Source: Escherichia coli (GTDB taxonomy: Bacteria; Pseudomonadota; Gammaproteobacteria; Enterobacterales; Enterobacteriaceae). Taken from it: 64,000 bases of DNA. Under the pieces are notes generated by a model. It was given only the letters and a program-made list of their open reading frames with translations. It ran no database searches and was not told the DNA's origin. The position numbers were made by a program, and so were the translations under genes. Location: the NCBI RefSeq assembly GCF_003334255.1, contig NZ_QOWU01000016.1; one strand, 5' to 3'. Below are positions 41,098 to 53,442 of this stretch, piece by piece. The number at the start of each line of letters is the position of its first letter. The first letter of the stretch is position 1.

Positions 41098-41152
41098 GTC
41101 GAGTCGAACCTCCCTGCCCCCGGAGGTTCTCATCCTCATGAGCTGCAGATGC

Positions 41153-41182
41153 AAAAAAGCCTGCTCGTTGAGCAGGCTTTTC
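41153..41182 (-). terminator. duplicate copy of the proK intrinsic terminator
   Basis: Hairpin agcctgctc-gttg-agcaggct flanked by an A6 run (T6 on the minus strand). Confidence 0.55.
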
Positions 41183-41320
41183 GAATTTGGTCGGTGATAG
41201 AGGATTACTCGCCACTTCGTGGCTCGCCCTGCGGGCCGTTGCTGGCGCAACGTTCTCTCGCTTCGCTCGAGTCGAACCTCCCTGCCCCCGGAGGTTCTCA
41301 TCCTCATGAGCTGCAGATGC

Positions 41321-41350
41321 AAAAAAGCCTGCTCGTTGAGCAGGCTTTTC
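41321..41350 (-). terminator. proK rho-independent terminator
   Basis: Same hairpin immediately 3' of the tRNA on the minus strand, followed by a T-run. Confidence 0.7.
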
Positions 41351-41355
41351 GAATT

Positions 41356-41432
<77 letters not shown>

Positions 41433-41523: not shown

Positions 41524-43215
41524 TTAGTTAGCCGCTGCCTCTTTTGCCTGCGGGATGTGACACCAGTTGTTGTTTTCGTTAATTCCACCATCCGGTGAAG
41601 TATAGCCAAGACAACCCATGATGGTATCGTACAGCTCTACGTGACGGCGTGGCACTTTCATGTCGGCTTCTTTTTTCAGCTGCGCAAACGCCTGCGCATT
41701 GGCCGGATTTTCCAGATATTTATCTGACATCCAGACCATCATCGGTACGCGGAACTGCTCCGGCGGTGCCAGTTCACGCGGCGTGCCGTGCAGGTGCTCG
41801 CGTTCATTAATTGACTCACCGTGGTCAGCTGCGTAGAACACAATCGCTTTCTTATCGCGAACCTGATCAATCACGCTGGAGATAAAGTGATCCACATAGG
41901 TCACCGAGTTGTCATAGGAGTTGATCATCTGCGCTTTGGTACAGCCGCTATCAACACCAATACATTCCGGCTTCCACTGCGCGAAGCTACGCGGATAACG
42001 CTGGGTGTAGTTAAAATGCGAACCTTTGGTATGCAGAATGATCAGATGCTTACCATCCGGGTTGCGCCCTAGCGATTGCTGCATTTCGTCTACCAGCAAC
42101 ATATCATCTACCGGCTTGCCACGATTACGTGGCTCCGCACCAATCTGCTCACGATAAGCAATGTTGTCCGCCATCGTGTTGCTGTAGAACCACATTTCGC
42201 TCTGCATAGCGTAGAGGTCAGAACTGAATCCTAACTGCTTCAGAACCGCGAAAATGTTCTGTTCTTTTAATGTGCGCTGCGGATTATCTTCCGCGCCCCC
42301 CTGACGTACAAACATGCAACGCAGTGAGAGTTTGGTTGCGGTATCACAGGAGTAACCACGGAACGCCGCCAGATTTTTCTCCTGGGCCAGTTTCGGCGTG
42401 GTATTACGCTCATAGCCGAAAATACCCATATGGTCCCAACGCGTGGTTTCACCGATGATAAACACGACATAAGTGTCATCAACGTTTTGCGGTGCCTGAT
42501 AAGTGAATTTCTTCGCCGGATTAAGCAATGAATTATTATCGGAAGATTCATCGACCCGCGCCCAGGCATACAGCCCCAACGCAGAAAGCCAGTTTGATGG
42601 CAGATAAGAGTTCGCTACGACACCGCCATAACTCGGCAAATCAACGCCGGTCGCCCTCTCCACTTTCTTCTGCTGGATATCCAGCAAACGAATCGGTGCC
42701 CAAACCATAATACCCGCCAGTACGACGACCGCCAGGCTGCGAATACGCTGCCCTGGGGTTCGCAGTTGTCGGAGCAAGGTGTAGCGACAGCGGTTATTCC
42801 AGATAAGGATAAGAGGCAATGCACTAACGGCGATTAACCAGAGAATAAAGTTCAGACCAACAACTTCTTTTGACAGGTCGATATCGGTGGTCATGACGGA
42901 AGCGATGATGCCATAACCAATGACCACATTAAGGAAGGTCATGTAATAGCTGGCACCTGCGGAAAAGAGCACCACCAGCGATGCCAGAATACGCCAGCTG
43001 CGGCGGCCAAACAGCGAAAGAAGACGTAGTAAAAAGAAGGTCACCAGTACGGTGGCGGCCAGTTCAACAACAGCAGAAATGCCTTTCCAGACGGTAAAAT
43101 CGTGCGCATAGCTGCCGAAGCGGCGGTAAAAAACCGCGCCATTCATAAAAAGGCCAATATAGATTGCAAGCAAAAAGCTCAGCTTCTGCTGTGTAATCGA
43201 TTTGATGTATCTCAT
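41524..43215 (-). CDS. eptB: Kdo2-lipid A phosphoethanolamine transferase (563 aa)
   Basis: Start at [10 protein letters not shown] (ATG 43215); N-terminal TM region plus sulfatase-like periplasmic domain; recognised as EptB/YhjW. Confidence 0.9.
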
Positions 43216-43430
43216 GCAAACAAACCCTGGACAAACAGGTGATAACACCCTGCTTAGTGGCTTTTCAGGCCCGGCAGGGAAAAAGTGCGGAGGTAGTCAG
43301 ATAAGTAAAATCTACACGCGCGAATAAGTAGACCACAGCAAAGGGAAAAAGTGTGGGGAAAGAGTGTGCATGAAGCACAAATTTACAAAAATGCAAGTTT
43401 GAAAAGAGACTTTAGCGTTACAAAAAGCAG

Positions 43431-43460
43431 TAAAAAGGGCCAGTTAATTGGCCCAAATTT
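43431..43460 (-). terminator. rho-independent terminator downstream of yhjX
   Basis: Hairpin gggccagttaattggccc followed on the minus strand by a T-run. Confidence 0.55.
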
Positions 43461-43538
43461 TACGAGTCATTGTTTATACATTTCGTTGATGCGTTTGATG
43501 CACACGGAAGCTGAAGCCCAGTAGCTCGCGGCTGAGCA

Positions 43539-44747
43539 TTAAAGGGAGCCATGCGCCTCACGCAACATTTTCTGCTCTGGCTGACGAATCGTCGTAGAAA
43601 GCGCCAATGACAGAATCAGCAGGGCGAAAATCACGTAGAAGGTCACATAGAAGCCGCCAAACAGTGAGGCGATAATCGAACCACAAATGCTACCGATACC
43701 GAAACCGAGATAAATCACACCGTAGTTTTTCGCCAGGTTATTGAGGCCAAAGAACTCACTGACCAGTGACGGAAAGACGGTAATAGTGCCGCCAAAGTTA
43801 AATGCCACGCAGGCAATCGCTGCAAAGAACGTCACTGCATTCAATGGTGCAAACAGCAGGGCCGCCATACCCACCAGCGATATCACCTGACCAATGGTAA
43901 TAACACGGATACGGGCGATTTTGTCAGACAGAATACCCAGCACCAGACGACCTGAAAGGTTGGCGATGGAAATAACAGTGACTGCATTGGCTGCGGAAAC
44001 CACATCAAGGTGTGCCAGACTTTGGGCGATATCTTTCGCTACCCCAATCACGTACAGGCCGCTCATGCAGGCGGTCAGGAACATTACCGCTAACATCCAG
44101 TACTGCGGTTTACGCATCGACTCTGCCAGCGTGTAATCTTTCTCCACCACACCATTGCTGGTTTTCACTTCCTGTTTTGGTGCGTCTTTCATTAACGTTG
44201 CGCCGAAAACAATCATCAACAGCGCAATCGCTCCCCAAATCACAAAGGTTTTTTCCAGACCGACCGTTTCCAGCAGCTGCGTGTCGATAAATTTGAAACC
44301 CAGGCTACCCAGACCATAAGAACCGATAGCGAACGCGGAGATCAGACCTTTACGCTCCGGGAACCACTTCACACAGTTAGAGAGCGTCAGCAGATAACCC
44401 GCGCCATCTGCCAGTCCCACCAGCACACCGGCGCTTAACCACAGCATCATCAGGTTGTCAGAATGCGCTGTCAGGAAGAAGCCTAATCCCAGCAAAATGC
44501 CGGAAGCCATGGTGACGCGTTTAACGCCAAAACGTTCCTGTAATTTGCCCGCAACAGAAGACGAAATTGCCAGCCCCAGACTTAACAAGCCGAAAGAGAA
44601 AGCGACCTGGCTTACCGGCGCATCCAGCTTGGCGGAAAGCGCGCCATTAAACAGGCTCCAGGTATAAACCGACCCCAGCGCAAACTGGGTAATGATAGTA
44701 CCGATGAGTGTCAGCCAGCGGGTACGCTGATAATTTGAAGGTGTCAT
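43539..44747 (-). CDS. yhjX: MFS transporter, oxalate/formate antiporter-like (402 aa), pyruvate-responsive YpdA/YpdB target
   Basis: Start at MTPSNYQRTRW (ATG 44747); 12-TM MFS ORF recognised as YhjX. Confidence 0.9.
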   Translation of the reverse strand: MTPSNYQRTRWLTLIGTIITQFALGSVYTWSLFNGALSAKLDAPVSQVAFSFGLLSLGLAISSSVAGKLQERFGVKRVTMASGILLGLGFFLTAHSDNLMMLWLSAGVLVGLADGAGYLLTLSNCVKWFPERKGLISAFAIGSYGLGSLGFKFIDTQLLETVGLEKTFVIWGAIALLMIVFGATLMKDAPKQEVKTSNGVVEKDYTLAESMRKPQYWMLAVMFLTACMSGLYVIGVAKDIAQSLAHLDVVSAANAVTVISIANLSGRLVLGILSDKIARIRVITIGQVISLVGMAALLFAPLNAVTFFAAIACVAFNFGGTITVFPSLVSEFFGLNNLAKNYGVIYLGFGIGSICGSIIASLFGGFYVTFYVIFALLILSLALSTTIRQPEQKMLREAHGSL

Positions 44748-44827
44748 GGCAGTATTCCTGCAGTAATAAAAAGGAAAAATCTCTGCCGACAACCATAACG
44801 AAGTGCACTTTATGCCTGGGGAAAAAC

Positions 44828-44861
44828 GGCATGAAATGCCATCAGAACGGAATGAAATGCC
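44828..44861 (-). promoter_or_regulatory. YpdB (LytTR response regulator) binding site: direct repeat upstream of yhjX
   Basis: atgaaatgcc occurs at 44831-44840 and 44852-44861 (11-bp spacer), i.e. GGCATTTCAT direct repeats on the yhjX strand, about 85 bp upstream of the start. Confidence 0.65.
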
Positions 44862-44975
44862 TTAGTTCAGGAATGAATGACGCGACAATTATTCACCAAA
44901 TTTATTATTTGGTAAGTTAGCACCCACTATTGCCACAACTATTGTTATTTAATGGTTTCAATTGTGACTGTTACG

Positions 44976-45674
44976 TTAAAATCTGGCGCTAACCCCCATC
45001 GTATACAGATAGTCGCTATTATTAGTGGTATTTTCTGCCTGAGTTAGCGCGGCATAGGCGGCAATATTTTGATTGAGCAACATATCAGCGCCTACGGTGA
45101 CATCCAGCCAGTTGCCGTTCTGGTTTGTCGCCGTCATCCGGCTCAGGCCTGATTGCGCCTTCCAGATATTCTCGCCAAATTGCTGGTTATAGCTGATTTG
45201 CGCCCAGGGTCGGAGATCGCCAAGCCGGGAGTCAACACGCCAGCCTAAGGTACTCACGCTGGCATGCCATAACGGATCGGTCAGCGTGGTAGTACTGTCG
45301 CCAAACTCGTTATACATCGAGGTGGTTGTGCCATCGTAATGTAATGCCGCGACCGGGCCGGTTGTAACCTGTTCATATAAAGGAAAATTCCAGCCCATAC
45401 TCATACTGCTGGTCACATCCACAGGGGTTTCTTCCGCCAGATTGACTTCCAGTCCCAGCGCCCTTTGGCTACTTTGAATACGTTGCGACAAAATATCGTT
45501 GTAATCAGGTTGATGATCACTATCCCAGGTGTAACGCTCTGTGGAAAGTCCGGGTTGCGTATCAACGATATATTCTTGTTGCCAGGCGTAAGCTGTGTTG
45601 AGAAAAAAGGCACTGATTACCACGCTCGCCAGCAGGCTTAGCTGCCAGCGACCACCGCTTTTTTTTATGATCAT
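44976..45674 (-). CDS. yhjY: putative outer-membrane beta-barrel protein (autotransporter beta-domain-like), 232 aa
   Basis: Signal peptide plus C-terminal aromatic residue (SARF); ATG at 45674 (ORF-track start 45680 is GTG). Confidence 0.8.
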   Translation of the reverse strand: MIIKKSGGRWQLSLLASVVISAFFLNTAYAWQQEYIVDTQPGLSTERYTWDSDHQPDYNDILSQRIQSSQRALGLEVNLAEETPVDVTSSMSMGWNFPLYEQVTTGPVAALHYDGTTTSMYNEFGDSTTTLTDPLWHASVSTLGWRVDSRLGDLRPWAQISYNQQFGENIWKAQSGLSRMTATNQNGNWLDVTVGADMLLNQNIAAYAALTQAENTTNNSDYLYTMGVSARF

Positions 45675-45831
45675 TAACACGACTCCAGGGAAGAGCCGAA
45701 TTCGGCAATATTATTGTCATTGTATGAAGGATATCGGGCATAGTAGCCCTGTATTAAATATTGACTTTTTCACCGATGCGTCAAGAAAAGCGGCTGAAAT
45801 TTTTACGATCGGGTACATAGCGAGGGAAAGT

Positions 45832-46395
45832 ATGGAACGTTGCGGCTGGGTGAGTCAGGACCCGCTTTATATTGCCTACCATGATAATGAGTGGGGCGTG
45901 CCTGAAACTGACAGTAAAAAACTGTTCGAAATGATCTGCCTTGAAGGGCAGCAGGCTGGATTATCGTGGATCACCGTCCTCAAAAAACGCGAAAACTATC
46001 GCGCCTGCTTTCATCAGTTCGATCCGGTGAAGGTCGCAGCAATGCAGGAAGAGGATGTCGAAAGACTGGTACAGGACGCCGGGATTATCCGCCATCGAGG
46101 GAAAATTCAGGCAATTATTGGTAATGCGCGGGCGTACCTGCAAATGGAACAGAACGGCGAACCGTTTGTCGACTTTGTCTGGTCGTTTGTAAATCATCAG
46201 CCACAGGTGACACAAGCCACAACGTTGAGCGAAATTCCCACATCTACGTCCGCCTCCGACGCCCTATCTAAGGCACTGAAAAAACGTGGTTTTAAGTTTG
46301 TCGGCACCACAATCTGTTACTCCTTTATGCAGGCATGTGGGCTGGTGAATGATCATGTGGTTGGCTGCTGTTGCTATCCGGGAAATAAACCATGA
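45832..46395 (+). CDS. tag: DNA-3-methyladenine glycosylase I (187 aa)
   Basis: Start at MERCGWVSQDPLYIAYHDNEWGVP (ATG 45832); C-terminal zinc-binding cysteines; the 266-aa ORF-track version is over-extended. Confidence 0.92.
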   Translation: MERCGWVSQDPLYIAYHDNEWGVPETDSKKLFEMICLEGQQAGLSWITVLKKRENYRACFHQFDPVKVAAMQEEDVERLVQDAGIIRHRGKIQAIIGNARAYLQMEQNGEPFVDFVWSFVNHQPQVTQATTLSEIPTSTSASDALSKALKKRGFKFVGTTICYSFMQACGLVNDHVVGCCCYPGNKP

Positions 46396-53340: not shown

Positions 53341-53442
53341 TCCCAGCCTCCTGTGTTGATTTCCAACGAGTGATTTATAGTCAGGTGGGGCTTTTCTCTG
53401 TCTGCCTTTCGGTGAATACCTGAGACAAACAGTCTCAAGCAC
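53188..53442 (-). CDS. mokA: mok-like overlapping reading frame (84 codons) in frame with hokA
   Basis: ORF starting MLETVCLRYSPKGRQRKAPPDYKSLVGNQHRRLG and ending at the hokA stop; functional status not determinable from sequence. Confidence 0.4.
   Translation of the reverse strand: MLETVCLRYSPKGRQRKAPPDYKSLVGNQHRRLGMPQKYRLLSLIVICFTLLFFTWMIRDSLCELHIKQESYELAAFLACKLKE

Follow-up and report, generated by a model that had tools for sequence, protein, structure and literature searches.

The window, by which we mean the whole stretch of 64,000 nucleotides of Escherichia coli DNA that was analysed, carries yhjX and its upstream neighbour yhjY, with a direct repeat of the 10-mer GGCATTTCAT in the spacer between the two genes (Table 1). 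The yhjX protein scores above the cut-off of two NCBIfam models, with 478 bits against TIGR00890 (oxalate/formate antiporter family) and 342 bits against the L-lactate MFS transporter model. Between 43400 and 45800 the DNA is shared at 100% identity with E. coli K-12 MG1655 and many further E. coli genomes, and among the complete genomes of the species, 5423 of 5426 carry the yhjX locus. Compared with MG1655, the window shows 6 substitutions in ~24.5 kb, and at position 53371 it is without the 1.4-kb IS150 element that interrupts hokA/sokA in MG1655 and many of its close relatives. The small number of substitutions, together with one IS150 fewer, indicates that the source is a very close relative of K-12, though not MG1655 itself; the operator is identical in the two.

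Elsewhere in the window, a 108-bp segment near proK is duplicated (41099–41206 and 41267–41374); this duplication is a known RtT-type repeat and corresponds to the RtT sRNA region in the annotation of related genomes. No RNA family match was found with Rfam within 43000–46000. The mechanically called open reading frames that run across the operator (44708–44920 on the plus strand and 44647–44832 on the minus strand) are without support and were disregarded.

Table 1 Features of the yhjX regulatory region, by position in the window.
Feature	Position	Strand	Basis
yhjX coding sequence, 402-aa MFS transporter (regulated gene)	43539–44747	−	RefSeq annotation of identical DNA
Shine-Dalgarno-like AGGAA ahead of the yhjX start	44755–44759	−	CAGGA invariant in the alignment
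Putative −10 hexamer TATGGT of the yhjX promoter	44792–44797	−	CTTCGnTATnGT conserved in 19/19 aligned promoters
Published YpdB-bound yhjX promoter fragment	44827–44884	−	58-nt core of the SPR oligonucleotide, 0 mismatches
Site B, promoter-proximal GGCATTTCAT	44831–44840	−	Exact match; replaced in the 'B bs' oligonucleotide (PMC4847170)
Spacer TCCGTTCTGAT, 11 bp	44841–44851	−	Partly conserved across genera: TCC invariant, then invariant CTG
Site A, promoter-distal GGCATTTCAT	44852–44861	−	Exact match; replaced in the 'A bs' oligonucleotide (PMC4847170 Table 1)
Third conserved block GTCATTCATTCC, putative function	44870–44881	−	TTCATTCC in common with site A and its flank, at exactly one 21-bp period
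yhjY	44976–45674	−	RefSeq annotation of identical DNA

A direct repeat upstream of yhjX

Both copies of the 10-mer are exact, and the plus strand accordingly reads atgaaatgcc, atcagaacgga and atgaaatgcc again, as had been claimed in a preliminary description of this DNA that proposed two copies of atgaaatgcc with an 11-bp spacer. The span assigned to the feature there, 44828–44861, is right at its end, but its start takes in three flanking bases (ggc) too many, since the repeat begins at 44831. The distance to the yhjX start, put at 'about 85 bp', agrees with the 83 nt that separate the end of the proximal copy from the ATG at 44747.

The two copies are the only exact occurrences of GGCATTTCAT in the 64 kb, and the pattern GGCATTTCAT-N11-GGCATTTCAT has a single match in the window (44831–44861, minus strand). 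A repeat finder lengthened the copies to 16 nt, with a single mismatch between them (AACGGcATGAAATGCC and AACGGaATGAAATGCC), and delimited two tandem 21-nt units at 44825–44845 and 44846–44866. Lying one 21-bp period apart, sites A and B would be presented on the same face of the helix. Repeats of 10 nt with an 11-nt spacer fall within the general spacing of LytTR operators, in which repeats of 9–11 nt are placed 11–13 nt apart (PMC4847170).

Short tandem duplications do occur, and the exact pattern is also found inside coding tandem repeats of unrelated genomes (L012, L013, L028, L029 and L032), so that a functionless repeat arising by chance or by neutral duplication has to be weighed. We regard this explanation as practically dismissed, however, because no match appeared in any of 100 dinucleotide-preserving shuffles, because the position upstream of yhjX is kept across genera, and because the binding and mutational data published for identical DNA already refute it.

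The repeat pair is the published PyrR (YpdB) operator

In the yhjX promoter (PyhjX), YpdB binds to a directly repeated GGCATTTCAT that has been well characterised and whose two copies are named sites A and B (Behr, Heermann and Jung 2016, PMC4847170). The wild-type PyhjX fragment used in SPR, CGCGTCATTCATTCCTGAACTAAGGCATTTCATTCCGTTCTGATGGCATTTCATGCCG, is said to span every DNase I-protected nucleotide (PMC4847170 Table 1), and this oligonucleotide carries the same 11-bp spacer as the window. From the mutant oligonucleotides, site A is the distal and site B the proximal copy. For the activated derivative YpdB-D53E, the KD is ~1 nM at site A and ~21 nM at site B, mutation of site A leads to loss of all YpdB-D53E binding, and the low-affinity site B is filled only after the high-affinity site A (PMC4847170).

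The preliminary description had taken the arrangement for the binding architecture of YpdB and had set comparison with the published site as the test of that assignment. This reading is borne out, as the motif and the 11-bp spacing are those of the published site, neither sequence nor spacing differs, and the match extends over 58/58 nt of the SPR oligonucleotide. The YpdB site was reportedly defined by Fried, Behr and Jung in 2013, and the limits of the footprint are taken here second-hand, through Behr et al. 2016. Given this identity, the reading of the repeat as an operator is correct, and the feature in the window is almost certainly (probability of about 0.96) the PyrR/YpdB operator of yhjX that has already been characterised.

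The cognate two-component system and the pyruvate response

For K-12, induction of yhjX by pyruvate through the kinase YpdA and the regulator YpdB, since renamed PyrS and PyrR, has been published, and the pair responds to external pyruvate at concentrations of at least 600 µM. In the UPEC strain UTI89, the non-cognate kinase BtsS together with YpdB is reported to drive the yhjX promoter, with pyruvate supplied by serine deamination (PMC9765748), and the E. coli yhjX promoter is reportedly recognised across genera (PMC5552118). The genes pyrS (ypdA, b2380) and pyrR (ypdB, b2381) are placed at 2.50 Mb in the MG1655 annotation and lie outside the 64-kb window; their DNA was found in 5423 of the 5426 complete E. 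coli genomes. From this distribution and from the near-identity of the window to K-12, we strongly infer that the source strain has both genes. To our knowledge, PyrR has no direct target other than yhjX.

The BtsSR and PyrSR systems form a network with which E. coli senses excreted pyruvate and adjusts its uptake or export. The repeat could on this ground be thought a target of the paralogous regulator BtsR (YehT) in place of PyrR, given that the BtsR and PyrR systems belong to one network and that the kinase BtsS can drive yhjX. Several observations make this very improbable. The BtsR-type pattern ACCRCTYA-N13-ACCRCTYA has no match in the window. The BtsR target DNA PyjiY, which differs in sequence, served as the non-binding reference for YpdB (PMC4847170), and in UPEC the response regulator acting at the yhjX promoter is still YpdB (PMC9765748).

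With the repeat taken as the PyrR operator, the literature on identical DNA shows the following course of events. External pyruvate switches on a kinase, usually PyrS (YpdA) but BtsS in certain strains, and through it PyrR. One activated PyrR monomer binds first to the distal site A (~1 nM), and occupancy of this site enables a second monomer to bind the proximal site B (~20 nM), where published on and off rates are fast. Transcription of yhjX thereupon comes as a pulse.

Proposed geometry of the yhjX promoter

Between the operator and yhjX, a scan for consensus sigma-70 elements gave no promoter. The sole hit of the scan, TTACCA-16-AATAAT (44915–44888), is on the upstream side of the operator and is not kept in Citrobacter, and it was rejected as the yhjX promoter. 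The hexamer TATGGT is likely to be the −10 element of yhjX, judging from its conservation. At standard spacing from this hexamer, the −35 region reads CCCAGG, which amounts to essentially no −35 element, and the want of a full sigma-70 match near TATGGT is as expected for an activator-dependent promoter. The alternative hexamer CATAAA (44809–44814), which would set site B over the −35 region, is lost in Intestinirhabdus and Raoultella, whereas TATnGT is present in 19/19 promoters; CATAAA was consequently discarded as the −10 element. PyrR bound at site B would probably bring RNA polymerase to a promoter devoid of a usable −35, because the end of site B would be situated ~10 bp upstream of the nominal −35 for TATGGT, the usual layout for an activator that recruits polymerase.

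Conservation of the operator and its alleles in E. coli

An exact-pattern scan with one genome per species returned 30 loci, 17 from enterobacteria and 13 from outside this group. The enterobacterial loci come from Escherichia albertii, E. whittamii, three further Escherichia, ten Citrobacter, Intestinirhabdus alba and one Raoultella, and in 17/17 the operator is located upstream of a yhjX orthologue (88–98% amino-acid identity) at a nearly equal distance from the ATG. As the loci were chosen by an exact match to both sites, the invariance of sites A and B is given by construction, and it is the conservation of the surroundings that is informative. In an alignment of 19 promoters, no variation is seen in the TCC that follows site A, in the GCC.TTTT that follows site B, in CTTCGnTATnGT or in CAGGA.

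The gene yhjY is the upstream neighbour in Citrobacter too. The spacer between yhjY and yhjX holds a further conserved block, GATAGTGnGTnCTAAC on the yhjX strand (44910–44933), that is common to Escherichia and Citrobacter, nearly so to Raoultella, and is absent from Intestinirhabdus.

Among complete E. coli genomes, 3600 have the K-12 58-mer with no internal mismatch. A second allele, found in 1627 complete genomes (~30%), has TGCATTTCAT at site A and CGAG in place of the upstream CGCG. The differences between the alleles fall at window positions 44861 and 44882 and include a G-to-T substitution in the high-affinity site A. The species thus varies at the first G of site A, and the core of the site that is conserved is the 9-mer GCATTTCAT.

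A third conserved block in phase with the repeats

The block GTCATTCATTCC upstream of site A is identical in 18 of the 19 enterobacterial promoters; the intervening 8 nt up to site A, by contrast, vary freely. When the yhjX strand is written as 21-nt units, C (TGTCGCGTCATTCATTCCTGA), A (ACTAAGGCATTTCATTCCGTT) and B (CTGATGGCATTTCATGCCGTT), the string TTCAT(T/G)CC recurs in exact register across the units, as seen both in the alignment and with the repeat finder.

This periodicity raises the question of whether the operator is composed of three units, with GTCATTCATTCC serving as a degenerate third contact for PyrR or as the site of a second factor that would modulate yhjX beyond the two-site model. 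We consider this possible though on balance doubtful. The identity of the block in promoters of four genera despite a variable adjoining stretch speaks for such a role, as does the TTCATTCC string that it shares with site A and its flank at the exact period, and nucleotides in the flanks reportedly affect expression in vivo. The block also falls within the SPR fragment, which is said to include every nucleotide protected from DNase I (PMC4847170). Against a role as a third unit, the site A mutant retains GTCATTCATTCC and site B and yet loses all binding, and only two binding modes were resolved (PMC4847170); GTCATTCATTCC is therefore not an independent site. Aligned without gaps, moreover, the block agrees with the 10-mer at only 6/10 positions, and it may already be covered by Fried et al. 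2013. A functional role of GTCATTCATTCC, if real, would be one in cooperative contact or in DNA shape.

A broader proposal would have the operator as a three-unit array of 21-bp period, in which GTCATTCATTCC is a functional contact of PyrR or another factor left out of the published two-site 'AB-BA' model and in which the G-to-T polymorphism of site A tunes induction between lineages. We hold this combination to be rather unlikely. The two-site PyrR operator remains our reading of the locus.

Discussion

The operator upstream of yhjX shows that a characterised regulatory site can be recognised from the raw sequence. What the present analysis adds to the known system is small and refines it: a third block in phase with the two repeats, a common variant of site A, and an identical operator at the lytST-lrgAB loci of Limosilactobacillus. 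These additions could serve models of DNA recognition by LytTR proteins or the design of pyruvate biosensors.

Four Limosilactobacillus species carry an exact GGCATTTCAT-N11-GGCATTTCAT in the intergenic DNA that separates lytS-lytT from lrgA-lrgB, with ldh following (4427–4457 in L031; also L008, L015 and L017). The spacers vary among these operators and the repeats are invariant. The neighbouring products were identified as LytR, LrgA and LrgB with NCBIfam, and E. coli PyrR and the LytT of L. vaginalis are 36% identical over their full length. The other nine of the 13 non-enterobacterial matches are singletons, most of them in DNA resembling tandem or peptide repeats in unrelated metagenome-assembled genomes, and all nine were judged unrelated. 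The YpdB site has been noted to resemble the LytT site of Bacillus subtilis, in which two 13-nt boxes stand 8 nt apart and so have the same 21-bp period (Charbonnier et al. 2017). In view of this likeness, the Limosilactobacillus operators represent a new instance of a known relationship.

Among known systems, the YpdB/PyrR site of the K-12 yhjX promoter is the same as the feature in the window in its motif, its 11-bp spacer, its flanks and its downstream gene. The BtsR operator of btsT (yjiY) likewise consists of direct repeats bound by a paralogous LytTR regulator within the same pyruvate network, but the sequence of its repeats differs. The LytT operator of B. subtilis pftAB (ysbAB) and of the lytST-lrgAB loci of Firmicutes also belongs to a pyruvate-responsive LytS/LytTR system, with boxes of 21-bp period upstream of a pyruvate transporter operon. 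The LytT loci differ from yhjX in that their target is LrgAB/PftAB, whereas in E. coli it is an MFS transporter, and in that their operator adjoins the regulator genes, whereas in E. coli these genes are ~1.2 Mb from the operator. Operators of the AgrA, VirR and PlnC/D type share the general layout of two direct repeats of 9–11 nt, 11–13 nt apart, upstream of an activator-dependent promoter (PMC4847170), but they have no sequence consensus with the yhjX site, and their regulons concern quorum sensing, toxins and bacteriocins.
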